Below, piece after piece: positions 12,847 to 56,571 of a DNA stretch of 56,571 nt. Within the stretch, counting starts at the first letter, position 1; each line of letters begins with the position of its first letter. The position numbers and the translations under genes were made by a program. The notes beneath the pieces were generated by a model, which made no database searches, was not told the origin of the DNA, and was given only the letters and a program-made list of their open reading frames with translations. The stretch comes from a virus (lineage: Duplodnaviria > Caudoviricetes): positions 1 through 56,571 of IMG/VR virus record IMGVR_UViG_3300042197_000691. The stretch is one strand, 5' to 3'.

Positions 12847-13467
12847 ATGGCAGTTTCTTCGTTAACAAGATTTACCGTTCCTCTAGGAGGTAATCAAAGC
12901 GCATCAACACAGGGCTTATTAATGCCTAAACTTAAGTTTAGATTCAGAGCCTTGTTTGATAACTTTGGGGTAAGTAATCCAAAAACAGAACTCACTAAGC
13001 AAGTGATTACGTTTGCTAGACCCAGTGTGACTATGGAGCCAATCGAGATACCTATCTACAACAGTAGAATTTATCTTGCTGGTCGTCCATCATGGAGCAC
13101 TAGTGCTATCACCTTACGTGATGATGCTGGTGGTAATGTAAGTAGACTAGTCGGTGAACAACTACAGAAGCAATATGACTTCTTAGAACAAGCCAGCGCA
13201 AGTAGTGCTATTGATTATAAGTTCCAAACAGTGCTAGAAGTACTTGACGGTGCTAACGGCGCTACTGAGCCAACAGTGTTGGAAGCGTGGCGCCTAGAAG
13301 GTTGCTTCTTAAGTGAAGTAAACTATCAAGACATGGATTACGGCAGTAATGAACCAGTTACCATTCAAATGACTCTACGTTACGATAACGCTCTACAAAC
13401 TACTGGTGGCGGTGTCGGCACTACTGGCTTAACTCAATTCAATCCAGCATCTTCTATAACTGGATAA
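12847..13467 (+). CDS. gp19: tail tube protein
   Basis: Directly follows the sheath; RIYLAGRPSW, WRLEGCF, TLRYDNA. Confidence 0.85.
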   Translation: MAVSSLTRFTVPLGGNQSASTQGLLMPKLKFRFRALFDNFGVSNPKTELTKQVITFARPSVTMEPIEIPIYNSRIYLAGRPSWSTSAITLRDDAGGNVSRLVGEQLQKQYDFLEQASASSAIDYKFQTVLEVLDGANGATEPTVLEAWRLEGCFLSEVNYQDMDYGSNEPVTIQMTLRYDNALQTTGGGVGTTGLTQFNPASSITG

Positions 13468-45553: not shown

Positions 45554-46100
45554 AAGTTGAAATTATTAAAGAATAACGGTCTTCACTCCCGGCATTTACC
45601 GCTGTATGCCAAATTTTTGTGTTAGTGAAATATATATATCCATCTGATGGAATGTGAAAATTTAATAGATTGTTATTATTTTTATCCAAAAATGTCATAA
45701 ATGCAAATGAATTGGTTTTCATTGCTAAATGCCATCTAATGGTATAATCTTTATGAAAAAGTAAAGATGTTCCGGGTTTCATTTTTCTTATGGTCATTCT
45801 ACAAATATTGTATTCACTGTAATTTTTTAAACTTTCCCAAATCTCTTCCCAAATAGTATTCTTAAAATTATTATTTAAATTTGTGAATTTTTTTTCTTCT
45901 CTGACGGTTGTTCTAGACAGTTTATTTTTTGCTTTTATATTATACAATCCATCTTCTAAATTTTCACCACATAAAGATAATTGATTGTAATTTTCTAATA
46001 TTTTGCTCATGCCTTTATGTTCTAATATTAATTCTAGCCCCGCGATTATTTCGTTTATATCAAAATATAAGTTAGTTTTTTTAATAAAGTCGTTATTCAT
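45543..46100 (-). CDS. aspartyl/asparaginyl beta-hydroxylase-like oxygenase
   Basis: FHKD, RWHL, WHTAVNAGSEDR. Confidence 0.75.
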   Translation of the reverse strand: MNNDFIKKTNLYFDINEIIAGLELILEHKGMSKILENYNQLSLCGENLEDGLYNIKAKNKLSRTTVREEKKFTNLNNNFKNTIWEEIWESLKNYSEYNICRMTIRKMKPGTSLLFHKDYTIRWHLAMKTNSFAFMTFLDKNNNNLLNFHIPSDGYIYFTNTKIWHTAVNAGSEDRYSLIISTYEN

Positions 46101-47581
46101 GTTATATTAAAATTTTTAAAGTAGATTTTTATTTGTTCAATAGATTTATTTTTTACTAAAGACCAATCTATTATCCTTTGATGTTTTGTTACTAAATCAT
46201 CAATGGTATATATACCGGAAGTTATCAATGGAGCAAAATAGTGAAATGGGTTTACGCTATATAATTCTTGTTTTGGATCATCGTAACTGAATATTTCGTC
46301 AGTAAAATTTTTAGCCCGTTCAAAATTCCATCCAGTTTCTGCGTGAATCCAGTTCCCTTGTTTATCAAAAGTAAATCCATATTTAGTTGAATCTCGGTCA
46401 AACTCGCTCGTAGAAAATCGTTGATTGCTGAGTTTATGCCTAATAGCTAGAGGAACAAACGCCCAACTTGGAATTCCTATATCTTTTACAAATTGTTTAG
46501 ATTGAAGTATATCGTTTTCAGTTTCATATGGCAATCCTACTATAAAATTGGTATGAATTGTTATTTTTTTATTCCAACGATTTGAAAGTTTTTCTAAGAA
46601 TAATTTAGATTCCGGATTTGCATTAAATCCTTTTCCTATCAGTAAAGAATTTTTTTTATTAAAAGTTTCTATTCCTAAAAAAGCAGAGCGTATTGAGCAT
46701 CTTTCAATTAATTCTATAGTTTCTGGAAATCTAGCCAACAAATCATATCTTATATATGCTCCGAAACTTGGCTTAAATGGCAAACTTTCTACCATATCTG
46801 CAAATTCCCTCATTTTGTCGATGTTTTCATTAAAGGTACTGTCAATTAAAGAATAATATGTTGTTTTGTATTTTTCATAATGATAAATTAATTGATTTCT
46901 AATTAACTTCATGTCTCTAATGTAATCATTTTTCTTTTTTCCTAAATATTGAAAATCACAAAATTTACATTTAAACATACATCCTCTACTTGCTTCTAAT
47001 ATCATGGATTCCCCTGAAAATATGTAATCATTTTCAGCATGACGAAAATCATAATTTAAAATATGAAATTTATTGTAGGATGAATTTTTATAAATTTTAA
47101 TTTTATACGGAAGTTCTAATTCGTAAGGTGGTTCCCTACAATTTCCGTTGAAATAATCTAATAACTCTAATATTATGTTTTCCGCATATCCTTGAATATA
47201 TCCATCTAAAAATTCTAAATATGGTTTAACTTTAAAAAAAGAAATAGCACCACCTGCTAATATTTTTACATGAGGATAAGTTGTCTTTATGAATAAAAGA
47301 ACTTCATTTAAAGATTTGGTATCAGGATTATTCCAAAAAGTTAAGCTCAATCCAACAATTTTAGTTTTTTCATTTATTAATTGTTTAAGAATATTTTTTA
47401 TATTTTCTGATGAAACGTCATATTCTTTGGTACTGACAGTACTTAAAAAATCAATAACTTGACAGGAATAATTATTTTTTCTTAGTATATCGGCTAGCAG
47501 ATAACTACCAAAAGGTCTATCTATTTTGATTCTATTTTTTGAAATTTTAGATTGGTTTGTTGTTAAAAATATTACATCCAT
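46097..47581 (-). CDS. cobalamin-binding-type (class B-like) radical SAM protein
   Basis: N-terminal VGLS...GG domain; EASRGCMFKCKFC; DSTFN; LGIET; FIVGLPYET. Confidence 0.8.
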   Translation of the reverse strand: MDVIFLTTNQSKISKNRIKIDRPFGSYLLADILRKNNYSCQVIDFLSTVSTKEYDVSSENIKNILKQLINEKTKIVGLSLTFWNNPDTKSLNEVLLFIKTTYPHVKILAGGAISFFKVKPYLEFLDGYIQGYAENIILELLDYFNGNCREPPYELELPYKIKIYKNSSYNKFHILNYDFRHAENDYIFSGESMILEASRGCMFKCKFCDFQYLGKKKNDYIRDMKLIRNQLIYHYEKYKTTYYSLIDSTFNENIDKMREFADMVESLPFKPSFGAYIRYDLLARFPETIELIERCSIRSAFLGIETFNKKNSLLIGKGFNANPESKLFLEKLSNRWNKKITIHTNFIVGLPYETENDILQSKQFVKDIGIPSWAFVPLAIRHKLSNQRFSTSEFDRDSTKYGFTFDKQGNWIHAETGWNFERAKNFTDEIFSYDDPKQELYSVNPFHYFAPLITSGIYTIDDLVTKHQRIIDWSLVKNKSIEQIKIYFKNFNIT

Positions 47582-47605
47582 AATTTAGAAAATCATAATA
47601 AACTC

Positions 47606-48343
47606 TTAATCTTTTCTTATCAACTCTATGAAATCTGCTGATAAATCAAAAGAAGAATATCTAAAATTACTGGGGAAGGCATGATGATTATTATGAAATC
47701 CTCCTCCAAATGTTAATAAATTCATTATGAAAACATTTTTAGAATTATCATTGGTTTGATGTGTTTTTTCTCCGAAATGTTCATTATGTAAAATGTAATT
47801 GCCAATAATACTCATTATTGATGTTATTAATGTTCCACCTATTAAAAGCCCAAATGCTAATTCATATGAAATTAGTGATAAAAATGCATAACTTGACCAA
47901 TATAATACATAATAATATTTGTGAATAAACATTAGATAGTTATCTCGGCATAAATCTCGTGGATATGTAATATTATAAATTTTTTTTGTTTTAATTATTT
48001 GCCATTTCAATGTAGATTCCCATATTCCATTTTTGGGTGAATGCAAATCATTATCGGTATCTGAATATTTGTGGTGATGTCTATGTAATGCTACCCAAAA
48101 TAGAGGAGAACCATGACCGGACAATGTTCCCAAATAAATTATTAAAAAATTAAAAAATTTATTTAATTTGAACGATTTGTGTGATAGATAACGATGATAT
48201 CCTATCATATTACCAATAACTCCTATTACTATATATCCTATTATGACATATAGTAAAAACCAAATTGATAATGTAACAGTACAAAATGTTATAGCAATTA
48301 ATAGTATTAAAGGAAACAATAATTTTAAAAAATGAGAAGTCAT
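47606..48343 (-). CDS. membrane fatty acid (delta-9-type) desaturase
   Basis: His boxes YHRYLSH, HRHHH...HSP, HNNHH; hydrophobic helices. Confidence 0.9.
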   Translation of the reverse strand: MTSHFLKLLFPLILLIAITFCTVTLSIWFLLYVIIGYIVIGVIGNMIGYHRYLSHKSFKLNKFFNFLIIYLGTLSGHGSPLFWVALHRHHHKYSDTDNDLHSPKNGIWESTLKWQIIKTKKIYNITYPRDLCRDNYLMFIHKYYYVLYWSSYAFLSLISYELAFGLLIGGTLITSIMSIIGNYILHNEHFGEKTHQTNDNSKNVFIMNLLTFGGGFHNNHHAFPSNFRYSSFDLSADFIELIRKD

Positions 48344-48349
48344 AATACT

Positions 48350-49060
48350 TTACCTATTCTTAAATATATGAATTATCAATCCTCCAACATCACCGCTTCC
48401 AAATTTATAGTTTTTAGGATCATTATGATGATTTTTATGATACCCCTCGCCCCAAACTAAGTATGAAAGCAATCTATCATTGAACACTGTTCCCTTTCGA
48501 TGACTTATACTTACTATTGAACTTCCTGCGTTCCACAAAATCGCAGCAGGCGCTAACCATGCATATATTAAAGCATTAACATCTTGAAATATTAAAATCA
48601 TTAATATTCCCCATAGTAATGAAATTTCAAAATAAAATTTGTGTTGTAACAAATAAAACTTTTCTTTTAATAAATCTGGTACATATCTTAAATTAACTTC
48701 ACTAAACATACTTAAAAAGTGACAATAAAACCAAGATTTATACAATGGGCTATGCGGATCTTTCTCAGTATCAGTAAATCTATGATGTTGTCGATGAATA
48801 CTTACCCAACTAATTGCACTACCAGTCAGTCCTGAATTTGCAAAAATTACAAATAAGTATTCCAAGAACTTAGATGTAGACCATGATTTATGACTTAGTA
48901 GCCTATGATAAGTCATAGTCATTCCTAAACACCCGTTTAAAAAATAAACAAATATTGTTACTAGCCACCAATAAATATTACCGTAAAATAACATATATAT
49001 TAGAGCAGAGTGAGCAATAATTTGCGAAATTAGTAAATTTAATGGTGTTAGTGGTATCAT
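48350..49060 (-). CDS. membrane fatty acid (delta-9-type) desaturase
   Basis: His boxes YHRLLSH, HRQHH...DPHSP, GEGYHKNHH. Confidence 0.9.
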   Translation of the reverse strand: MIPLTPLNLLISQIIAHSALIYMLFYGNIYWWLVTIFVYFLNGCLGMTMTYHRLLSHKSWSTSKFLEYLFVIFANSGLTGSAISWVSIHRQHHRFTDTEKDPHSPLYKSWFYCHFLSMFSEVNLRYVPDLLKEKFYLLQHKFYFEISLLWGILMILIFQDVNALIYAWLAPAAILWNAGSSIVSISHRKGTVFNDRLLSYLVWGEGYHKNHHNDPKNYKFGSGDVGGLIIHIFKNR

Positions 49061-49101
49061 AATAAATATTTATCTACATTTTTTGATTGATCTAAAATTA
49101 T

Positions 49102-49458
49102 ATGCTAACGATAACGAACAATGCTGTACAAAAAATATCTGATATTCTTGTTGAAGAATCGCCAAATACAAAATTACGAATCTTCGTTCAAGGCGGAGGG
49201 TGTAGTGGATTCAACTATGGATTCACCACAGATACAGAAATAAATGAAGATGACTTCATCATAGAAAACACAAATGATACAGTAGTTACAGACAGTATGA
49301 GTATGCAATACCTAGCAGGTGCAACCGTTGATTATGTGGAAGATTTAATGGGTAGTAGTTTTAAAATAGATAACCCAAATGCTGAAACAACGTGTGGCTG
49401 TGGTAGTAGTTTCAACGTTGGAGAAGATTTTTACGATCAAGATTTTGATTTTCATTAA
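49102..49458 (+). CDS. erpA: A-type Fe-S carrier protein (ErpA/IscA, HesB family)
   Basis: [31 protein letters not shown]. Confidence 0.9.
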
Positions 49459-49720: not shown

Positions 49721-49904
49721 TTGTGCTAGTGGGAAACGTGGTCCTAGTAGAGCACATAAAATATACTACAAAAAGGGCGGACTGCTGGATGAAAGTGTGG
49801 CGATAACACATAAGTACAAATAGCAGGTCAGGGTACAGCCCTGACATATCCAGAAACATTCTGGATATTCCAAAGTACATAGCAAAATGTGTATTTTGGA
49901 ATAT
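49721..49904 (+). ncRNA. putative structured RNA downstream of the attenuator
   Basis: Successive hairpins TGTGCT...AGCACA, GTCAGGG-TACAG-CCCTGAC, ATATCCAGAA/TTCTGGATAT, and a 17-bp stem at 49865-49904. Confidence 0.4.
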
Positions 49905-49910
49905 AAAAGT

Positions 49911-49939
49911 TTGACGGAATCTCCATCACCGTTTATACT
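49911..49939 (+). promoter_or_regulatory. sigma70-type promoter
   Basis: TTGACG-N17-TATACT. Confidence 0.7.
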
Positions 49940-49962
49940 ACTAAAAACTTACAAAGGAAACT

Positions 49963-50145
49963 ATGAAGTCAACATCAAATTATAAAATGAGTAAGCCACT
50001 AAAAATGCGTCTAAGTTCAACGATGTATCCACGGGATTTGCTCCAAAAGTGGAAACGTGCTATGATTGATAGTGAATTGAGCGCAGAACAAGCAAGCAAG
50101 ACCGCAGCAAAGCGTGAAAAGAATAAAGATGTAGAATCCGAATAA
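49963..50145 (+). CDS. hypothetical protein
   Basis: AAGGA RBS; follows a promoter. Confidence 0.6.
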   Translation: MKSTSNYKMSKPLKMRLSSTMYPRDLLQKWKRAMIDSELSAEQASKTAAKREKNKDVESE

Positions 50146-50153
50146 AATACTAT

Positions 50154-50228
50154 GTCAGGATGGCCGAGTGATTTAGGCAATGGTCTGCAAAACCGTCTAG
50201 GTGAGTTTGATTCTCACTCCTGACTCCA
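50154..50228 (+). tRNA. tRNA-Cys(GCA)
   Basis: Cloverleaf; anticodon loop CTGCAAA; T discriminator plus CCA. Confidence 0.88.
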
Positions 50229-50234
50229 AATATT

Positions 50235-50327
50235 AGAAGGTTGACAGAGAGGCCTATTGTCGCACATTGGAAATGTGATGGTCTGATAGTATCAGGCACC
50301 GGGGTTCAAATCCCCGACCTTCTGCCA
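50235..50327 (+). tRNA. tRNA-Ser(GGA)
   Basis: Loop TTGGAAA; long variable arm; GGTTCAAATCC T-arm; GCCA end. Confidence 0.88.
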
Positions 50328-50333
50328 AAAATT

Positions 50334-50699
50334 ATGTTAAAAGAATTCTATATTGACTCACAATATCTAGTAGATGTACCTACACATAAGATAATATCTA
50401 CATTAGAAAATCCAGCCGATCCCACACCAGAAGACTTACTTAAAATATTAAGTGACAAAGATGCCTGGCATATGTATAGTCATAAAGATCATGATGAATT
50501 TACTAGTTTACGCAATCAATTAGAAAAATTAGGATACATAAAAACAGAAAGAAATTGGTGGAACGGTGATCATGTATTAAAGAGTTTCAAACTAAATGGT
50601 TGGGTAATACGAAAGCATGGTAAATTTCCATGTGCTGCTGCTTTAGGTATTTCAATAAATTGTGCCAATAAAAGTGGCCGTAAGCGATTGTACTTGTAA
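50334..50699 (+). CDS. hypothetical protein
   Basis: Start moved to the ATG after the tRNA-Ser CCA (MLKEFYIDSQ...). Confidence 0.65.
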   Translation: MLKEFYIDSQYLVDVPTHKIISTLENPADPTPEDLLKILSDKDAWHMYSHKDHDEFTSLRNQLEKLGYIKTERNWWNGDHVLKSFKLNGWVIRKHGKFPCAAALGISINCANKSGRKRLYL

Positions 50700-50790
50700 G
50701 GGAAATCAAATTGTCTGGGACAGTCACTGCCTCGAAAACAGATGGACGCAGCAATCCTGTGTTGAGGTTCGATTCCTCGGTTTCCCGCCA
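50700..50790 (+). tRNA. tRNA-Ser(CGA), atypical D-arm and anticodon stem
   Basis: GGGAAAT/GTTTCCC acceptor; loop CTCGAAA; long variable arm; GGTTCGATTCC; GCCA. Confidence 0.7.
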
Positions 50791-50792
50791 AT

Positions 50793-50871
50793 GCCCAGGT
50801 GATGGAATTTAGGTATACATACTGTGTTGAGAACGCAGGTTGTGCAGGTTCGAATCCTGTCCTGGGCACCA
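50793..50871 (+). tRNA. tRNA-Leu(GAG), short variable loop
   Basis: GCCCAGG/CCTGGGC acceptor; loop TTGAGAA; GGTTCGAATCC; ACCA. Confidence 0.85.
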
Positions 50872-50872
50872 T

Positions 50873-50901
50873 TTGACTAAAATACAGACCAGTGTTATAC
50901 T
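50873..50901 (+). promoter_or_regulatory. sigma70 early promoter
   Basis: TTGACT-N17-TATACT with extended TG. Confidence 0.75.
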
Positions 50902-50937
50902 GTATTTGTTGTAGCGATGTTATAGAGGTTAAACCAA

Positions 50938-51210
50938 ATGCGTACCAAGACGATCATCAAAGGTTTCAAGAATAGCCAAAAGTTCAGATTCATTCTGACT
51001 GCGAATAGTGGTGAAGAAGTTAGCATGTACATGACTATTCAACAATTGTCGGATATGTGTGCTAACCGTGATACTAGGTTGGCAGTGTGGGATGCTCTGG
51101 GCCAATTGGCACGAGACCGTGATGAGGCAAAGTCTTGTGGCAAACCGTTGCCCACTGGCCTGGCCCGTAGTGCTTTTGTTTTCCGTCAGGTTCAGGTTGA
51201 TCTGCGTTAA
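50938..51210 (+). CDS. hypothetical early protein
   Basis: GAGG RBS; own promoter. Confidence 0.7.
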   Translation: MRTKTIIKGFKNSQKFRFILTANSGEEVSMYMTIQQLSDMCANRDTRLAVWDALGQLARDRDEAKSCGKPLPTGLARSAFVFRQVQVDLR

Positions 51211-51213
51211 TTT

Positions 51214-51242
51214 TTGACAATAAATCGGTGTAGTGTTATACT
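51214..51242 (+). promoter_or_regulatory. sigma70 early promoter
   Basis: TTGACA-N17-TATACT; shares AGTGTTATACTGTATTTGTTGTAGCGA with the 50873 promoter. Confidence 0.8.
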
Positions 51243-51269
51243 GTATTTGTTGTAGCGAAGGAGTCAATC

Positions 51270-51530
51270 ATGTCGTATGTTGTTTATCACAAGGCCAGCA
51301 CTCAAATTCTCAAGAGCTTTGATCTGGAATCCTCGGCAAAGCGTAGTGCTACCTGTATGAACCGTAATGCAGGTGATGTTCTGTACACCTATGCTGATCG
51401 TGAAACTTATGAAAAGCGTGTGGTCTATCGCAAGCAGGTTCGCAATCTGATGACTGGCGAAATGGTGGAGATTGATAGCAATACGCCGTGGTGTTGTAAT
51501 CCGGCGTCGGAAACATATTGGTCCATGTGA
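51270..51530 (+). CDS. hypothetical early protein
   Basis: AAGGAG RBS; C-terminal TPWCCNPASETYWSM. Confidence 0.75.
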   Translation: MSYVVYHKASTQILKSFDLESSAKRSATCMNRNAGDVLYTYADRETYEKRVVYRKQVRNLMTGEMVEIDSNTPWCCNPASETYWSM

Positions 51531-51555
51531 CAGAAAATACCAATTCTGTTATACT
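51527..51555 (+). promoter_or_regulatory. sigma70 early promoter
   Basis: GTGACA-N17-TATACT with extended TG. Confidence 0.65.
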
Positions 51556-51581
51556 GTATTCACAACACAAGGAGAAGTGAA

Positions 51582-51788
51582 ATGAACGAACGAATTAAGG
51601 AACTTGCCAATCGTGCTATGGTTGTGAGAGAAGATGGCTGGAGTGAGTTTGATGCTAATGTGTTCGCCGAGTTGATTGTTCGGGAATGTTGCGTAGTTAT
51701 GTTTGCTGATCCAAGGCTCGGAGATGTTAGATCAGCCACCCGTGGTTGTGCAAGATCAATCAAAGAACATTTCGGAGTCGAAGAATGA
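51582..51788 (+). CDS. hypothetical protein (MNERIKELA...FAELIVREC type)
   Basis: AAGGAG RBS; small phage ORF. Confidence 0.75.
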   Translation: MNERIKELANRAMVVREDGWSEFDANVFAELIVRECCVVMFADPRLGDVRSATRGCARSIKEHFGVEE

Positions 51789-52069
51789 AGGGTAATCTTG
51801 TTCATTCATATATTACTGGATTCAAATTCAATACCATCTATGGTGGCCAAAGTGAAGACTATTCTAGGTCAATTACTCAGATCAAATATTTAACTCCCTT
51901 GGCAGCACAAAGATGGCCCTGGATGAAAAACAAGTGGCAGGTCAGTGACCATCGTACTTGTTTTGGATACTACGATACTCTCAGAGAGGCAAAAGCACGG
52001 GCACAGGAATTGTGGCCAGGGTGTGGCTTCAAAACACCTGCGCAGTTCAGGGCTGAGGATAAACTATGA
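51785..52069 (+). CDS. hypothetical protein
   Basis: ATG overlaps the previous stop (ATGA). Confidence 0.6.
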   Translation: MKGNLVHSYITGFKFNTIYGGQSEDYSRSITQIKYLTPLAAQRWPWMKNKWQVSDHRTCFGYYDTLREAKARAQELWPGCGFKTPAQFRAEDKL

Positions 52070-52215
52070 GTTTTAGAACAGCATATTCCAGTTTTAAGAG
52101 TGGTCGTCGGCCATCTAAGCCACAAGGTCCAATTCGTGATCTTACGCCAGAACAATGGCAGAAACAAATGGACAAATACTATGTTCAAGAGATGCGTAAA
52201 AAGAATGGACGATAA
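52066..52215 (+). CDS. hypothetical 49-aa protein
   Basis: GAGGA RBS; ATGA overlap; MSFRTAYSSFKSGRRPSKPQG...; too short for the ORF track. Confidence 0.5.
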   Translation: MSFRTAYSSFKSGRRPSKPQGPIRDLTPEQWQKQMDKYYVQEMRKKNGR

Positions 52216-52220
52216 GGTGT

Positions 52221-52287
52221 TTGACAGTAAATAGAAACAGTGCTATACTGTGTTCATGCGTTGAGAAATCAACAAGTTCTTTAACAA
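52221..52287 (+). promoter_or_regulatory. sigma70 promoter with boxB-like hairpin and boxA
   Basis: TTGACA-N17-TATACT; GTTGA-GAAA-TCAAC hairpin; GTTCTTTAACAA. Confidence 0.75.
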
Positions 52288-52288
52288 T

Positions 52289-52478
52289 CTGTAGTGTGTT
52301 TTAGGCTGATGGCGACAAACGTCAGAAGGTCTGATTCTTGTCCCAACGAACCCTGTTGTCGCAGTGCTAAGTTGGAGTCCTAGTAGGTTAATTGGAAGAC
52401 CAACCGCAGATGTGCGGGAAGTTCGGGTTCAAGTCCCGACCAGTGTTTAACAAGACATCAGCCTAAAACGCATTACAG
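52289..52478 (+). ncRNA. stem-closed RNA cassette containing a pseudo-tRNA
   Basis: 23-bp closing stem CTGTAGTGTGTTTTAGGCTGATG / CATCAGCCTAAAACGCATTACAG with two G-U pairs; D-arm and T-arm inside. Confidence 0.6.
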
Positions 52479-52485
52479 ATAACAG

Positions 52486-52558
52486 TTGACAATAATTCAG
52501 AGGTAGCATATAATAGTGCATACGCTGAACGAACAGTCAGCAACAGTTCTTTATACAA
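52486..52558 (+). promoter_or_regulatory. consensus sigma70 promoter with hairpin and boxA-like element
   Basis: TTGACA-N17-TATAAT; GCTGA...TCAGC; GTTCTTTATACAA. Confidence 0.78.
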
Positions 52559-52626
52559 TTCGCAAGGTTTTTTGGTATCATGTCAACTAGACACTGGGTT
52601 TTCACTAGTGTTGTTGATGTGGCGTG

Positions 52627-52754
52627 ATATCATATTTGAGCGCATTTCTCGGGGCAACCTTCCCCCTAAACAGTCTTGACGGTAAGGCAGATCACAAACA
52701 TCAATGATGTTTTGATGCCAAGGCTGAGCGACGAAGTGTTCTCAAATATGGTAT
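52627..52754 (+). ncRNA. conserved-stem RNA cassette 1
   Basis: TCATA-TTTGAG-CGCATT ... AGTGTT-CTCAAA-TATGG. Confidence 0.6.
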
Positions 52755-52757
52755 AAC

Positions 52758-52843
52758 GGAGTGTTGGCAGAGCGGTCGAATGCGGGGGACTGTAAATCCC
52801 TTTCCCTAGTGACACGGTGGTTCAAATCCATCACACTCCACCA
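52758..52843 (+). tRNA. tRNA-Tyr(GTA)
   Basis: GGAGTGT/ACACTCC acceptor; loop CTGTAAA; long variable arm; ACCA. Confidence 0.9.
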
Positions 52844-52850
52844 AATATTT

Positions 52851-52952
52851 GGGTCGTAAATGGTGAGTATTTGGGTTCGATTCCCAACTCGGTATGGTAC
52901 TTGAAACTAGGCGACGGCTAACTCGAAGGTTCGATTCCTTCACGATCCACCA
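52851..52952 (+). ncRNA. tRNA-like RNA with two T-arms (Ser(TGA)-like pseudo-tRNA)
   Basis: GGGTCGT/ACGATCC-ACCA acceptor; TTGGG-TTCGATT-CCCAA where the D-arm should be; GAAGG-TTCGATT-CCTTC T-arm. Confidence 0.55.
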
Positions 52953-52958
52953 AAATAT

Positions 52959-53034
52959 AGACTTTAGAGTGATTGGAAATCCTATCTCCATCACACGGAG
53001 ATGTTGCGAGGTTTGAGTCCTCGATAGTCTACCA
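52959..53034 (+). tRNA. tRNA-Val(CAC), atypical
   Basis: TCTCC-ATCACAC-GGAGA anticodon arm; T-loop TTTGAGT; one acceptor mismatch; ACCA. Confidence 0.65.
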
Positions 53035-53045
53035 AGAATACTCTC

Positions 53046-53295
53046 GTACTCAATTCCCAGTCTGACGCATAGGTATAATTAATGACTGGGGTGAGGGTGC
53101 CGCACTTCAAGACCTGACAGGGGGACAAGGCACATAAACTGTCAAATCCTAGTAGACCGCTAGCGTTAACAAATGGTCAGGTTTGACCGGAACCTATAAA
53201 CGGTCAGTAGGTATGATCCACGGTTTAGTGGGGACCGAGGGTGTTGGTCTTTAAGTGCCAACAGGTCGTATCCGAGGAGGGGGTATACGACACCA
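53046..53295 (+). ncRNA. unknown ~250-nt structured RNA with putative pseudoknots
   Basis: Several hairpins; H-type pseudoknot at 53184-53212; ends in ACCA at the next cassette arm. Confidence 0.45.
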
Positions 53296-53373
53296 TAGTC
53301 AAGCACATTAAAACAAACCTGATCAGTTTGTCGTACATACTAAGATAAATGTATAGTGTGCTTGACTATGGTG
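53291..53373 (+). ncRNA. conserved-stem RNA cassette 2
   Basis: CACCATAGTCAAGCACATTA / TAGTGTGCTTGACTATGGTG. Confidence 0.7.
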
Positions 53374-53483
53374 AAGGTGTAATGAGAGAAGCACGGGATC
53401 GCCACATAAGTCTATGTCGTAAGACAACACTAGAAATAGTGCAATAGCGGTGGAACAAGGTTCAGGAGTGGTAAAAGCCCACA

Positions 53484-53610
53484 CACCATAGTCAAACACA
53501 TAATTCTGGTTCGACTCCAGACTCAAAATTCGATAAAGGATTTTGATGAAGGGATCGCCGTTGCATATGCGGGGGTTGGTTCAAGGCATTTTGTGTGTTT
53601 GACTATGGTG
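53484..53610 (+). ncRNA. conserved-stem RNA cassette 3 (contains a T-arm)
   Basis: CACCATAGTCAAACACATAA / TTGTGTGTTTGACTATGGTG; TCTGG-TTCGACT-CCAGA inside. Confidence 0.7.
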
Positions 53611-53656
53611 ATGAGAGTAATTAACTCAACATCAGAATCGGAAGTAATTACTCCGA

Positions 53657-53751
53657 TGACCCGTAGTGATGAAATGGTAGACATAGGCCCGTAGTGGGGC
53701 CGGTGGAAGTAGAAGCCACGTGCAGGTTCGAGTCCTGCCTACAATGGGTCA
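53657..53751 (+). ncRNA. Leu-type pseudo-tRNA
   Basis: Leu-like D-arm GATGAAATGGTAGACAT, long variable arm and canonical T-arm, but a 6-nt anticodon loop, bulged acceptor and no CCA. Confidence 0.55.
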
Positions 53752-53830
53752 CATAGTCAAACACATTACTGCCCTGTCTACTACGGGGCGGAGGGCTGTC
53801 GATTACGGTCCGTTAGTGTGCTTGACTATG
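53752..53830 (+). ncRNA. conserved-stem RNA cassette 4
   Basis: CATAGTCAAACACATTA / TAGTGTGCTTGACTATG; two GC-rich hairpins inside. Confidence 0.7.
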
Positions 53831-53950
53831 GTAATGAGCGATTAAGCAAGAACGTAGAGTATTGAGTACGGAAGGCATTTCGTATCAAGAGATAATTCAA
53901 TAGGTGTGCAAAGCTGATTTGAATCACGGAGTAGGGCTCCTCCTGCTCAT

Positions 53951-54023
53951 TACCATATTCAAGCACATTGCTACTGTACAAACAGTTTTCTAGATACGCT
54001 GGGCAGTGTGTTTGAATATGGTA
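53951..54023 (+). ncRNA. conserved-stem RNA cassette 5
   Basis: TACCATATTCAAGCACATTGC / GCAGTGTGTTTGAATATGGTA. Confidence 0.7.
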
Positions 54024-54140
54024 AGGTTCGAAACTTATCATTAAATGGAAGAAGGGTAACGGGTCCTAAAACCTTTCAAGGCACAAACGTTGGGGGAATC
54101 ATACCTCCTATGCTGAACCTGACAGTCTGGAAAGACAGAC

Positions 54141-54222
54141 ATCATATAAAACCACATTTGTCACACCCACTTGGTGTTAATGTGACCGCCTAACTGCGGG
54201 AGCGAGTGTGGTTTTATATGGT
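54141..54222 (+). ncRNA. conserved-stem RNA cassette 6
   Basis: ATCATATAAAACCACATTTG / CGAGTGTGGTTTTATATGGT. Confidence 0.7.
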
Positions 54223-54290
54223 ACGACGGGGGTGGTGAGTAGGTGTTGTCGTAAACACTGGGCACCGGGATTCCCCTCCCAGCAACACTG

Positions 54291-54452
54291 GGACCATATT
54301 CAAACACATTAGCCTACCCAAAGGCTTGTAGACAGTGGTTGGAAGGATCTACACTAGTGTTATCGCAAGCGGCAGGAACTATCCGAGTGGTGTCGGACCC
54401 TGCGGGGATTTCGAAATCCTCAGATGAACCGTAGTGTGTTTGAATATGGTCC
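54291..54452 (+). ncRNA. conserved-stem RNA cassette 7
   Basis: GGACCATATTCAAACACATTA / TAGTGTGTTTGAATATGGTCC; 120-nt multi-hairpin interior. Confidence 0.7.
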
Positions 54453-54536
54453 ATAATTTAGCACATACAGTTGCGCCCGATAGTAAGGGAGATAGCTACT
54501 AGAGTTGAAGCACTGTTTAAGTGTGCTAAATTATGG
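54451..54536 (+). ncRNA. conserved-stem RNA cassette 8
   Basis: CCATAATTTAGCACAT / GTGTGCTAAATTATGG; abuts cassette 7. Confidence 0.7.
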
Positions 54537-54684
54537 TTCTGAGTCAAAGTGCGAAGCCTAAGCAGCCCAACGATCAGGGTATACAGCATCCTACTACATC
54601 ATGGCTGATGGATCAAGGTAGGATAGCAGCAATATGACTGCTATTAAACAGATGATCGTAACCAACAAAATTTGTGAAAGACAC

Positions 54685-54752
54685 TTGACAATAATTCAGC
54701 GTTAGCATATAATAGTGCATACGCTGAAAAAAACAGCAAAGTTCTTTAACAA
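54685..54752 (+). promoter_or_regulatory. consensus sigma70 promoter with hairpin and boxA (near-copy of 52486)
   Basis: TTGACA-N17-TATAAT, then AGTGCATACGCTGAA; GCTG...CAGC; GTTCTTTAACAA. Confidence 0.8.
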
Positions 54753-54770
54753 GTTAGAAAAGATTTTTTT

Positions 54771-54846
54771 GCCCCGTTCGTCTAGCGGTAAGGACGCTGC
54801 CCTTTCAAGGCGGAGGTCACCGGTTCGAATCCGGTACGGGGTACCA
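54771..54846 (+). tRNA. tRNA-Glu(TTC)
   Basis: Canonical cloverleaf; loop CTTTCAA; ACCA. Confidence 0.92.
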
Positions 54847-54945
54847 TATCAAAACATATTGACGCTAGGCCGAAAGCAGTAAAGGACAAGTAACTGACTG
54901 GTTAAAACGGTTGACCTAGAATAGTTAGTATGTTTTGATATGGTA
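54842..54945 (+). ncRNA. conserved-stem RNA cassette 9, overlapping the tRNA-Glu CCA
   Basis: TACCATATCAAAACATATTGAC / GTTAGTATGTTTTGATATGGTA. Confidence 0.7.
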
Positions 54946-54960
54946 ATAAATGTTCATAGA

Positions 54961-55034
54961 GCCTCGTTCGTCTAATGGTAGGGCCGCGTCTTTACACGGC
55001 GCAGACGGCAGTTCGATTCTGTCACGAGGTACCA
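54961..55034 (+). tRNA. tRNA-Val(TAC)
   Basis: GCGTC-TTTACAC-GGCGC anticodon arm; ACCA. Confidence 0.85.
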
Positions 55035-55045
55035 TAAAGAATAAT

Positions 55046-55123
55046 CTGGGTGTATTGTCAGCCAAGTAGACGGCCTGCCTTGGAAGCAGGAGGACGCAGG
55101 GGCGGAGCCTGCCACCCAGACCA
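55046..55123 (+). tRNA. tRNA-Pro(TGG) with non-canonical T-loop
   Basis: CCTGC-CTTGGAA-GCAGG; T-loop GGCGGAG; ACCA. Confidence 0.75.
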
Positions 55124-55135
55124 TTGTGAAGATTA

Positions 55136-55210
55136 CTGGGTATATTGTCAACCAGGTAGACGGCCGGGCTTGGAACTCGGAGGCTGTAGGTTCGAATCCT
55201 ACTATCCAGA
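55136..55210 (+). tRNA. tRNA-Pro(TGG), second copy, no encoded CCA
   Basis: CCGGG-CTTGGAA-CTCGG; GGTTCGAATCC. Confidence 0.8.
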
Positions 55211-55252
55211 CACAAAGTAGATTTTGTATAAATACATGTAAGGAGAAATATT

Positions 55253-55918
55253 ATGTTCTATTACTTGTATGAAATCAGAAATAATTTGAATAACAAAATC
55301 TACGTAGGAGTTCATAAAACAAATAATATGGATGATGGTTATATGGGCTCTGGAAAAATAATCCAGAATGCTATTAGAAAGCACGGAATTGAGAACTTTT
55401 CTAAAGTTATACTTGAGACTTTCGAAAATTCAAAAGATATGTACGAAAGAGAATCTCAAATAGTAAATGATCAATTCTTATTAAGAGAAGATGTATATAA
55501 TCTTAGAAGAGGAGGTCATGGAGGATTTGAGTATATAAATAAAAACGGTATTAGTGTATTAATTTCTGAACAAAGAGAAAGAAATCCATCATTGATACAA
55601 AAAGCATCTATATTGGGAAATGAAGTAAAGAAAAATAAAGCTAAAAATGATCCAGTATATGCTGATTATTTGACTTCTATACGTAAAAAAGCAACACAAA
55701 AGTCAAAAGAAAATAATCCAAATGGAACATTTTATGGCAAAAAACATACAGCAGAATATAAAAAGTTTATGTCGCTGATCATGGCTGAAAAGCAATCAGG
55801 CTTAAGAAATTCACAATTTGGCACAATGTGGATAACTGATGGCACTGAAAGTAAGAAAATCAGTAAAACTGATGCCATTCCCGATGGATGGAAAAAAGGT
55901 AGAATAATGAAAAAGTAG
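55253..55918 (+). CDS. GIY-YIG homing endonuclease (Seg-like) inside the tRNA cluster
   Basis: YLYEIRNNLNNKIYVGVH...YMGSG; FYGKKH; WITDG...GWKKGR. TATAAATA and AAGGAG upstream. Confidence 0.88.
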   Translation: MFYYLYEIRNNLNNKIYVGVHKTNNMDDGYMGSGKIIQNAIRKHGIENFSKVILETFENSKDMYERESQIVNDQFLLREDVYNLRRGGHGGFEYINKNGISVLISEQRERNPSLIQKASILGNEVKKNKAKNDPVYADYLTSIRKKATQKSKENNPNGTFYGKKHTAEYKKFMSLIMAEKQSGLRNSQFGTMWITDGTESKKISKTDAIPDGWKKGRIMKK

Positions 55919-55947
55919 TTGACAGAAAAAGAAAAAATAGATACAAT
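55919..55947 (+). promoter_or_regulatory. sigma70 promoter for downstream tRNAs
   Basis: TTGACA-N17-TACAAT. Confidence 0.7.
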
Positions 55948-55957
55948 AGAAAACATT

Positions 55958-56032
55958 CGGTTCATGATGAAATGGTTATCATAGTTGACTTTTAATCAAT
56001 CTTTCCCGGTTCGAGTCCGGGTGAACCGACCA
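55958..56032 (+). tRNA. tRNA-Lys(TTT)
   Basis: CGGTTCA/TGAACCG acceptor; loop CTTTTAA; ACCA. Confidence 0.88.
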
Positions 56033-56040
56033 AAATTATT

Positions 56041-56117
<77 letters not shown>

Positions 56118-56126
56118 AAATGTTAA

Positions 56127-56245
56127 AGGATGCTAACAGCAATAATTTTATGGATAAACCACGTGAACGGTTCGACTCCGTAGTCGTCAAGCAATTGATG
56201 ATTTAGTGTAACGGTAGCACAGAGGTCAAAAATAAATAGCATCCT
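56127..56245 (+). ncRNA. YrlA-like Y RNA / circularly permuted tRNA mimic
   Basis: AGGATGCTA/TAGCATCCT closing stem; order inside is T-arm, acceptor stem capped by GCAA, then D-arm. Confidence 0.65.
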
Positions 56246-56265
56246 GATAAAGATGATACATACAG

Positions 56266-56503
56266 TATCATAAATTGTGTTGTTATGGAAAAACCCAGTG
56301 TTCACCTGGGTAATGCACTCTCACTGTAGGCTCTGGTTGCAAACATCCTACACGAGTTGTTGTCAGTGCATATGGGTCATGCCTGTATGTGCGTAACGAA
56401 AGTGGGTCAAAGTATCGACGGATACTCCATATAAGTTGACACGATAAAAGCAAACGGCAGTCGGGTTAGGGCTGTCCATAACATAACAATACAATTTATG
56501 ATA
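56266..56503 (+). ncRNA. stem-closed ~240-nt structured RNA
   Basis: 22-bp stem TATCATAAATTGTGTTGTTATG / CATAACAATACAATTTATGATA; multi-hairpin interior. Confidence 0.5.
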
Positions 56504-56505
56504 TT

Positions 56506-56571
56506 GGCCGATGGGACTGCATGGAGTGGTCGCCTCACTGTCACTGAGGAGAATCAGAGGGGATCGTTACC
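56506..56571 (+). tRNA. tRNA-Asp(GTC), truncated by the window end
   Basis: CCTCA-CTGTCAC-TGAGG anticodon arm. Confidence 0.7.

Follow-up and report, generated by a model that had tools for sequence, protein, structure and literature searches.

Co-varying hairpins with exchangeable interiors in the transfer RNA arrays of uncultivated phages

What are the hairpins that recur along the non-coding end of a large phage genome fragment, always with the same stem and never with the same interior? The question is raised by a complete virus record of the IMG/VR collection, IMGVR_UViG_3300042197_000691 (Duplodnaviria; Caudoviricetes), whose 56,571 bases were analysed in full and are referred to here as the window. 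Since CheckV puts its completeness at 13%, the window is a fragment of a very large phage. An earlier note, made from the letters alone, had described in it a non-coding array of varied small structured RNAs on one co-varying stem, and this description holds. It had overlooked the context, which is a transfer RNA (tRNA) operon, and had likewise overlooked that the stem takes its start from the CCA of the RNA upstream and closes at the 5' end of the one that follows. As set out below, the helix is under RNA-type selection, is co-oriented with the tRNAs and is exchanged as a module. We give about even odds (a probability of roughly 0.5) to the proposal that the hairpins form a transcribed-spacer module of phage tRNA operons, in which the helix would act as a processing or stability handle and the interiors, called cargo here, would be independent small structured RNAs.

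The nine hairpins (elements 1 to 9; Table 1) occupy positions 52630-54943 on the + strand and conform to the consensus CCAUA-N6-CACAU(U) ... (A)GUGUG-N6'-UAUGG, in which a variable core is flanked on either side by conserved boxes. Nine 5' arms of the form CATA-N6-[CG]RYAT strictly alternate with nine 3' arms of the form GTRT[GT]-N6-TATG between 52631 and 54942, on the + strand only, the ninth 3' arm being the GTGTT variant. The 5' motif CATANNNNNNCRYAT has 11 matches in the window, 9 of which are in the array, compared with an expected 3.32; the 3' motif GTRTGNNNNNNTATGG has 8, all in the array, compared with an expected 0.30. In neither case did any of 100 shuffles reach the observed count. 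A search of the window for inverted repeats recovered 9 of 9 arm pairs, so that all the pairs listed in the earlier note on the + strand are recovered, with motif counts above those of shuffled sequence. Folding z-scores of the nine elements range from −4.7 to −7.9, and the + strand fold beats the − strand fold in 7 of the 8 elements folded both ways.

Closer inspection changes several details of the first description. Three 5' arms open with TCATA or ACATA and not with CCATA (elements 1, 6 and 4). Perfect pairing of the co-varying N6 cores is found in 7 of 9 elements, element 4 having an A.C and element 5 a G.U, and the apical U.G wobble is indeed kept in 9 of 9. Between the boxes the interiors measure 37-124 nucleotides (nt), not 29-120 nt, and the actual stem is longer than first stated, at 17-20 base pairs, because it usually adds A(−1)/U(+1) at the base and a U-A pair beyond the wobble. 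The boxes of element 9, CAUAU/GUAUG, represent a compensated change.

The same hairpin is widespread in phages. Family counts were obtained from pattern scans with the boxes fixed, samples are the matches listed, and the figures are accordingly lower bounds. The strict pattern, CCATA-N6-CACAT-N(35-65)-GTGTG-N6-TATGG, is present in at least 120 IMG/VR stretches with interiors of 35-65 nt; at least 120 stretches have interiors of 66-96 nt, and 22 stretches in all of IMG/VR have interiors of 0-30 nt, most with loops of 5-13 nt. When 596 Gb of bacterial and archaeal genome contigs were scanned with the strict pattern, 11 stretches matched: 4 loci, located on 3 short contigs of metagenome-assembled genomes, lie in dense tRNA arrays, and 7 have 0-2 tRNAs. 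The element belongs to phages, given that cellular matches are few and that dense tRNA arrays surround them at only 4 loci; the family spans hundreds of uncultivated phage genomes and is essentially absent from cells. A laboratory phage with the element was not found at BLAST sensitivity in a copy of INPHARED. Megablast of the array region against cultured phages gave a single 84-nt tRNA match, and blastn of the Gln-element-Lys-element-His stretch gave 213 records, each with a query cover of at most 24% and with matches to tRNA only. Close relatives of the window were found neither in IMG/VR with a 22-nt window string nor in JGI metagenomes with the gapped arms of element 3; a looser arm pattern yielded 8 loci and no close relative.

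Covariation in the helix is strong across this family. Of the 154 copies of the first sample, 150 have at least 5 of the 6 possible pairs in their N6 cores, which the search pattern had left free; by our own arithmetic, chance would give ~3%. Alignment A1 contains 104 copies, namely one per interior cluster and six copies from the window; 95.9% of its cells are paired, none of 500 shuffles matches the observed values on any of five measures, and pairing falls to 29-53% in controls in which the partner was slid by 1-3 columns. At one core position the pairs are AU 49, UA 44, GC 7 and CG 1. At another they are GC 30, AU 15, CG 6 and UA 4, with 49 cells unpaired, and these 49 are the A.C of the commonest variant, UAAAAA/UUUCUA. 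The boxes co-vary as well, as seen in a relaxed scan of the same loci in which they were freed (283 copies): position 2 has CG 229, UA 32 and UG 10, position 12 has CG 242 and UA 24, and position 14 has CG 240, UA 21 and UG 21. At the wobble, position 16, the pairs are UG 242, CG 29 and UA 9. Covariance model R1, which was derived from A1, recognises eight of the nine copies in the window (+ strand, 21.9-59.2 bits) and nothing else there; on 60 related loci it finds many further diverged copies. With A1 and R1 the family is defined well enough for annotation and testing.

We then consider the position of the hairpins relative to tRNA genes. The strict pattern is strand-specific, and all 272 scorable copies, 154 from the first sample and 118 from the second, share the strand of the nearest tRNA, which fixes the RNA strand. 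The view that it is the + strand that folds is upheld by this co-orientation, whereas the argument originally offered for it, from the wobble, fails for the commonest family variant: its mid-stem A.C becomes a G.U on the other strand, so the wobble cannot fix the strand. According to ARAGORN, the CCA of a tRNA coincides with element bases 1-3, at a constant offset, in 96 of 155 copies, and the next tRNA begins at the GG of UAUGG in 41 of 155 and immediately after UAUGG in 5 more. CCA is encoded by 1830 of the 1869 tRNAs of these arrays. The discriminator base is within the helix in 86 of 104 aligned copies, and copies without an upstream tRNA start with CCA in 94 of 167 cases and otherwise with paired alternatives such as CUA/UAG. 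With the CCA of the upstream tRNA shared and the alternatives themselves paired, the helix is thus arranged to start right at the terminus of the upstream RNA; at its base the upstream discriminator and CCA pair with a UGGU that adjoins or forms the 5' end of the next RNA, and the spacer is thereby filled exactly. An upstream tRNA is missing for 58 of 155 and 36 of 119 elements in the two samples. In the window a canonical tRNA, tRNA-Glu(UUC), precedes element 9 only, which opens with its CCA, and element 1 ends 6 nt upstream of tRNA-Tyr. The other window elements follow non-tRNA or odd tRNA-like RNAs, several of which have an ACCA end. One of these, a conserved RNA that we call 'X RNA', is sandwiched between elements in the window and in 11 other phage loci (12 of 12).

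Where a tRNA does precede the element, it is often one of three. Among 97 elements after a tRNA, tRNA-Lys(UUU) accounts for 53, Gln(UUG) for 13 and Glu(UUC) for 7, and in the second, independent sample the corresponding figures are 40, 7 and 15 of 83. Each of the three accounts for ~4-5% of the 1859 tRNAs in these loci. The first sample contains 83 Lys(UUU) genes, and an element follows 53 of them. The upstream-tRNA counts are phylogenetically non-independent, and the link may be due in part to shared ancestry of the arrays.

The interiors behave differently from the stem. Clustering of 163 interiors gave 112 clusters, in which the nine window interiors are all singletons; that the interiors are mutually unrelated, as the earlier note had it, is therefore confirmed. 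Their median length is 51 nt in the first sample, and across the family the apical cargo ranges from 5 to ~125 nt and is typically 35-95 nt, short-loop copies (5-13 nt) being rare. One or two hairpins are predicted in 100 of the 112 cargo representatives. T-loop-like words are present in 9 of 112 cargo clusters. Mimicry of anticodon loops by the cargos found no support, as the commonest 5- to 7-mers are T-loop-like and no anticodon-loop word is prominent; none of 119 long interiors contains a tRNA. An interior identity above 0.7 is seen in 0 of 33 pairs whose upstream tRNA-Lys genes are 93-97% identical and in 35% of 23 pairs with a tRNA-Lys identity of at least 97%. Element 8 has orthologues in three other loci, which have the same interior with two compensatory pairs within the cargo (alignment A3). 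In this orthologous set of 4 copies there are four different cores, of which three are fully paired and one has a single A.C. The maintained cargo length, together with the covariation in one cargo family, suggests that some of the cargos, at the least, are independent RNAs.

Relatives of this phage gain, lose and swap modules exactly at the arms. The joint 53486>53752, found in relatives' contigs, joins two identical 5' arms with 15 shared letters, and the joint 54293>54451, in one relative's contig, leaves element 7 missing as a unit; further joints at arms in relatives' contigs are 54140>54293, 54141>54451, 53831>54044 and 53310>53814. In two runs 65 different letters stand in place of the element 3 interior, 53502-53592, while the two arms remain. 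A BLAST comparison with the related loci reveals a mosaic, the region having single non-tRNA modules in common with different phages. The habitat labels of the DNA runs (freshwater or unspecified metagenome) are those of the records themselves; RNA-labelled runs gave small shares only (0.05-0.11), and the two that were examined, X20 and X23, consist of contigs. Conserved stems with swapped interiors, which the earlier note proposed to look for in related phages, are thus seen both in the aligned family copies and in the contig comparison.

Next, the element was compared with known classes. No Rfam family was placed on the elements at the gathering score. At E values up to 5 over 49800-56571, three elements gave weak, microRNA-type chance matches only (21.3, 21.3 and 20.3 bits), and on nine related loci Rfam identified 110 tRNAs, one GOLLD RNA and one group I intron and left the elements unmatched. 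A match of the stems to an Rfam or transposon family, which would have undone the original proposal, is accordingly absent from the window array and the nine related loci. The elements are not tRNAs, as ARAGORN called 0 of 283 copies, whether at its default threshold or at 90%, and 4 once this was lowered to 80%, with no Rfam tRNA match. Nor are they self-cleaving ribozymes: no ribozyme family matched (E up to 5 in the window, gathering score in the 9 loci) and there is no conserved interior. Direct repeats are absent, which rejects a CRISPR array, and the copies of the window share no interior (nine singletons), which speaks against a miniature inverted-repeat transposable element (MITE). For integron attC sites, the tyrosine recombinase family PF00589 was found in 0 of 17 element-bearing records (0 of 5 complete), with a positive control in 14 of 14 genomes. 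Y RNA or YrlA identity is rejected by the lack of an Rfam match on the elements at E up to 5 and of TROVE in 17 records. As to promoter/stem-loop (PeSL) cassettes, the promoters at 52486 and 54685 are outside the stems and no element has a + strand terminator-like site. In sum, judged by those defining features that can be tested, the element is no ribozyme, tRNA, attC site, Y RNA, PeSL or MITE; in position it agrees with spacer RNAs, and in structure with processing stalks.

The likenesses are nevertheless instructive. Ribonuclease (RNase) III processing stalks are found in ribosomal RNA operons and in phage T7 early transcripts. Like them, the element is a long helix of about two helical turns, formed from the flanks of an RNA in a polycistronic transcript, with wobble or mismatch positions within the stem; unlike them, it brackets small unrelated cargos in up to nine copies, its stem sequence is conserved over hundreds of phages, and it starts exactly at the tRNA CCA. 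The Escherichia coli tRNA-operon spacer RNAs (3'ETS-leuZ and internal spacers) work as single-stranded sponges by way of Hfq and base pairing. The elements resemble these as candidate functional RNAs in a transcribed spacer, presumably released by tRNA-processing enzymes, and differ from 3'ETS-leuZ-type RNAs in being closed, phage-borne hairpins with a shared stem and variable structured tops. Y RNAs and YrlA, which associate with Ro (Rsr), have a stem formed by the two ends, with a protein-binding helix, and a variable, sometimes tRNA-like module. The elements also have a stem made from 5' and 3' ends, and T-loop-like words in the 9 cargo clusters mentioned; unlike Y RNAs, they have no family-model match and their phages have no TROVE gene (0 of 17 records). 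With attC sites, as these are generally described, the elements share an imperfect inverted repeat with conserved outer boxes, a variable centre and strand-specific imperfections, and their boxes, CCATA/TATGG and CACAT/GTGTG, are unlike attC core sites.

Three further comparisons draw on published work. Theta (hepatitis delta virus-like) ribozymes adjoin phage tRNAs, with a proposed role at the tRNA 3' trailer; their catalytic fold is conserved, and CCA is encoded by only 4.5% of the tRNAs that they accompany (PMC10879173). The present elements are likewise phage RNA elements directly beside tRNA genes; unlike theta ribozymes, they have no conserved interior, can have loops of 5-13 nt and adjoin arrays in which 1830 of 1869 tRNAs encode CCA. 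The PeSL cassettes of T4-type phages comprise a promoter and a terminator and flank open reading frames (ORFs) (PMC2839356, PMC4122927). Here too a repeated short motif bounds the insertion, deletion and replacement of modules, whereas the stems carry no promoter or terminator, flank or enclose small RNAs and show RNA-type covariation. GOLLD and ROOL RNAs are structured, phage-borne, often near tRNAs, large (>400 nt) and single-copy (PMC5737381). The likeness lies in a structured RNA near phage tRNAs, and the array of one relative, L246, itself contains GOLLD; unlike those RNAs with their large conserved architecture, the elements consist of a short stem with exchangeable cargo. No description of the hairpin motif was found in the literature searched, including the accessible parts of PMC5737381 and PMC2864571, supplementary motif lists being outside the search.

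How might such a hairpin work? In the spacer-module reading that we favour, each hairpin would be made within a polycistronic tRNA transcript, and the helix would define and insulate the ends of the neighbouring RNAs. Where a tRNA follows, RNase P would be predicted to cut between UAU and GG; bacterial RNase P prefers a U at −1. The hairpin would then stay on the upstream RNA as a stable 3' structure. As exonucleases cannot remove a hairpin, an endonucleolytic cut would be needed, probably either on the 5' side directly after CCA or by a double-strand RNase across the stem, followed by trimming, and the end product would be a stable capped hairpin. Recombination at the conserved arms would allow phages to trade cargos. 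A specific reader of the stem is suggested by the conservation of the stem sequence, of the U.G and of the A.C/G-C position. A punctuation role would fit, because the hairpins of the window mostly separate non-tRNA RNAs, which RNase P and RNase Z would not be expected to recognise. It is also conceivable, if doubtful in our judgement, that the stem serves universally for display, with the array as an RNA cassette system whose fast-turning cargo library lake phages trade by recombination at the arms. The cargos would then be, for example, aptamers, decoys or regulators directed against host factors, expressed from tRNA operons and matured by the host tRNA machinery, and the preference for sites behind tRNA-Lys(UUU), Gln(UUG) and Glu(UUC) would connect the system with the contest over these anticodon-nuclease targets.

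Several observations weigh against the spacer-module reading. As the arms are alike, those of neighbouring elements can cross-pair. In the window, a 3' arm and the 5' arm of the next element form 14-16 of 17 pairs, compared with 15-17 within elements, and the 3' arm of element 4 can pair with the 5' arm of element 5 over 23 nt at 96%, which is better than their pairing within elements. Family-wide, cross-pairing is nearly as good as pairing within hairpins (15.43 vs 16.50 of 17) and, in 35 out of 72 pairs of neighbours, no worse than the weaker of the two hairpins. The advantage of the cargos in folding over shuffled sequence is modest (mean z −0.63 for 112 representatives), and cargo is dispensable in at least some copies, since short-loop hairpins exist. 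The exchange evidence comes from assembled contigs of public metagenome runs, from which no RNA starts, ends or strand can be read. The model would not lead one to expect the strong link to Lys(UUU), Gln(UUG) and Glu(UUC). Candidate partner proteins are equally elusive: neither a phage RNase III nor TROVE is encoded by any of 17 element-bearing records (5 complete). An RNase H-like protein, PF04308, is encoded by 10 of 18 records and by 3 of 5 complete genomes, often within the arrays (28 of 120 loci). Its absence from 2 of 5 complete genomes means that it is not an obligate partner, and no family of neighbouring ORFs was found in more than 28 of 120 loci. With no phage RNase III, cleavage by RNase III would need the host enzyme. 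RNase III reads shape more than sequence, and the host enzyme leaves the strong conservation of the stem sequence unexplained. Mini-III prefers an ACCU word in double-stranded RNA, from which the stem base, ACCAUA/UAUGGU, differs in a way that the enzyme may or may not tolerate.

Alternatively, the helix alone might matter, as an RNase III-type or other double-strand cleavage site or as a folding insulator, and the interiors would be drifting, recombining filler. The stem length suits a double-strand RNase substrate, short-loop hairpins exist, the mean interior folding z is only −0.63, and interiors are unrelated despite upstream tRNA-Lys genes that are 93-97% identical (0 of 33 pairs above 0.7). 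Deletion bias should however shrink filler, and yet few copies have an interior of at most 30 nt (22 stretches vs at least 120 in each longer class); moreover, the element 8 cargo is kept in 4 phages with 2 compensatory pairs, the conservation of the stem sequence goes beyond the needs of a shape-reading RNase, and adjacent tRNAs in the arrays often manage with spacers of 0-15 nt (823 of 1749). A role as spacer and nothing else thus seems rather unlikely to us. The enrichment of Lys(UUU), Gln(UUG) and Glu(UUC) upstream (53 + 13 + 7 of 97, and 40, 7 and 15 of 83) would find a natural place if the hairpin were a cis-acting lock, which by pairing with the 3' end of these tRNAs (discriminator and CCA) would hold them as inactive precursors until cut and so time or protect them. 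The three tRNAs are common targets of anticodon nucleases, and the discriminator is in the helix in 86 of 104 aligned copies. Such a lock is nonetheless improbable, as there is no upstream tRNA in 58 of 155 and 36 of 119 cases and, in the window, only 1 of 9 elements has one; the tRNA counts are not phylogenetically independent, and the variable cargo is left without a role.

The remaining two explanations place the function of the arms in DNA. They could be chiefly short homologies for the shuffling of small-RNA genes in T4-type phages, a role compatible with one in RNA. The joints in relatives' contigs fall at arms, one with 15 shared letters, the arrays are mosaics of modules common to different phages, the phages carry T4-type genes, and PeSL cassettes provide a precedent for ORFs (PMC2839356, PMC4122927). 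Compensated core changes within one hairpin are left unexplained by recombination, as are the strict co-orientation with tRNAs and the retention of the U.G (242 of 283); the stems, moreover, carry no promoter or terminator, and we give this account little credence as the chief function. Even less credible is a mobile palindromic element or integron-like attC hairpin that inserts beside tRNA genes. Inverted-repeat ends, a variable centre, many copies per array and strand-specific imperfections like those attributed to attC sites are what it would lead one to expect, and against these stand the interiors, which are not shared within the genome (9 of 9 singletons), a tyrosine recombinase in 0 of 17 records (5 complete), boxes that differ from attC core sites as commonly given, and 'cassettes' that are RNAs and not ORFs. 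We consider it very improbable.

It is customary to treat a phage tRNA array as a list of tRNA genes. In the present arrays a second class of RNA makes up a considerable part and is adjoined by further non-tRNA RNAs (X RNA, odd tRNA-like RNAs and, in a relative, GOLLD). Should the helix act as a processing handle, it would show how phages have non-tRNA RNAs matured by tRNA enzymes. If the cargos are active, they would constitute a new repertoire of small RNAs in the conflict between phage and host, and the Lys/Gln/Glu(UUN) link would be a testable lead on phage tRNAs and anticodon nucleases.

Table 1. Positions of the hairpin elements and associated features in the window (z, folding z-score; R1, score with covariance model R1)
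Feature	Position	Strand	Stem	Cargo	z	R1 (bits)	Basis or remark
Element 1	52630..52751	+	UCAUAUUUGAGCGCAUU / AGUGUUCUCAAAUAUGG	90 nt	−5.17	21.9	
Element 2	53293..53371	+	core GUCAAG/CUUGAC	47 nt, two hairpins	−7.14	59.2	
Element 3	53486..53608	+	core GUCAAA/UUUGAC	91 nt, T-arm-like hairpin first	−7.92	44.2	
Element 4	53751..53831	+	5' arm ACAUA; A.C in core	49 nt	−6.35	41	
Element 5	53953..54021	+	core UUCAAG/UUUGAA, one G.U	37 nt	−7.81	58.2	
Element 6	54142..54221	+	core UAAAAC/GUUUUA	48 nt	−6.02	49.7	
Element 7	54294..54449	+	core UUCAAA/UUUGAA	124 nt, three hairpins	−5.82	50	
Element 8	54451..54536	+	core AUUUAG/CUAAAU	54 nt	−4.70	not listed	
Element 9	54844..54943	+	core UCAAAA/UUUUGA	68 nt	−7.85	57.8	
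Sigma-70-type promoter ahead of elements 1-8	52486..52514	+					12/12, consensus match only
Sigma-70-type promoter ahead of tRNA-Glu and element 9	54685..54713	+					12/12, consensus match only
tRNA-Glu(UUC), discriminator and CCA = base of element 9	54771..54846	+					ARAGORN, Rfam
X RNA, conserved non-tRNA RNA of ~77 nt, ACCA end	54220..54296	+					sequence comparison
Odd tRNA-like RNA just 5' of element 4	53660..53746	+					ARAGORN two-base 'anticodon'; Rfam tRNA 21.2 bits, sub-threshold

The window encodes myovirus-type proteins (tail sheath, tail tube, large terminase and the single-stranded DNA-binding protein SSB). From ~49.8 kb to its end, ORFs yield to the + strand RNA region, which has a G+C content of 0.40-0.45 compared with mostly 0.25-0.40 in the rest of the window. 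ARAGORN finds 10 tRNAs in this region, and it holds several consensus sigma-70-type promoters, two of which are 12/12 matches (52486 and 54685). Small ORFs beside the array have no Pfam match. A gene for a GIY-YIG homing endonuclease (PHROG 314, E 1.4e-42) is located within the tRNA array at 55253-55918, reminiscent of SegB in the T4 tRNA region. Genes of auxiliary-metabolism type lie near the array at 46097-49458 and encode a B12-binding radical SAM protein, two fatty-acid desaturase-like proteins and a HesB/IscA-like Fe-S assembly protein.

X RNA carries invariant GGGAUUCC and a CAGCAACACUG hairpin and is called as a tRNA by neither ARAGORN nor Rfam. The odd tRNA-like RNA upstream of element 4 is 77-88% conserved in the related loci L109, L246, L227 and L222. 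L246 shares several non-tRNA modules with the window, and the GOLLD RNA in its array (2411-2870, 225 bits) has an embedded tRNA; the L046 array has a group I intron (13185-13378, 53.4 bits), and ARAGORN identifies transfer-messenger RNA genes in several related arrays, for example L014, L030, L032 and L057.

The RNA region contains further conserved units. At 52287-52480 a different bracket stem (25 nt, 92% complementary) surrounds a weak tRNA-like match (52377-52447, 27.7 bits); it follows a promoter at 52221, and the whole unit is conserved in L246, L227, L097, L086 and L048. Between tRNA-Tyr and tRNA-Val, positions 52844-52958 comprise two T-arm-like words and an acceptor-like 3' end (…ACGAUCCACCA), and may be a broken or unusual tRNA. 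The non-coding stretch 53040-53176, 3' of a promoter-like word, is 81% identical to L246 over 124 nt, and two short contigs from a metatranscriptome-labelled run map there at a depth of ~19-24 (X23 contigs over 53063-53176). Some 240 nt at 56262-56503 are conserved in L246 (83%), L024 and L104, with no convincing ORF or RNA family. Finally, 56127-56255 belongs to a second family of hairpins with a conserved stem, AGGAU-NNN..WMCAGCA ... NNN-AUCCUG, often with a U run after it, which has 33 matches in 24 of 267 sources. In the copies of the window and L246 the cargo has a T-arm-like word followed by a D-arm-like word, and this hairpin may be a permuted tRNA-like RNA.

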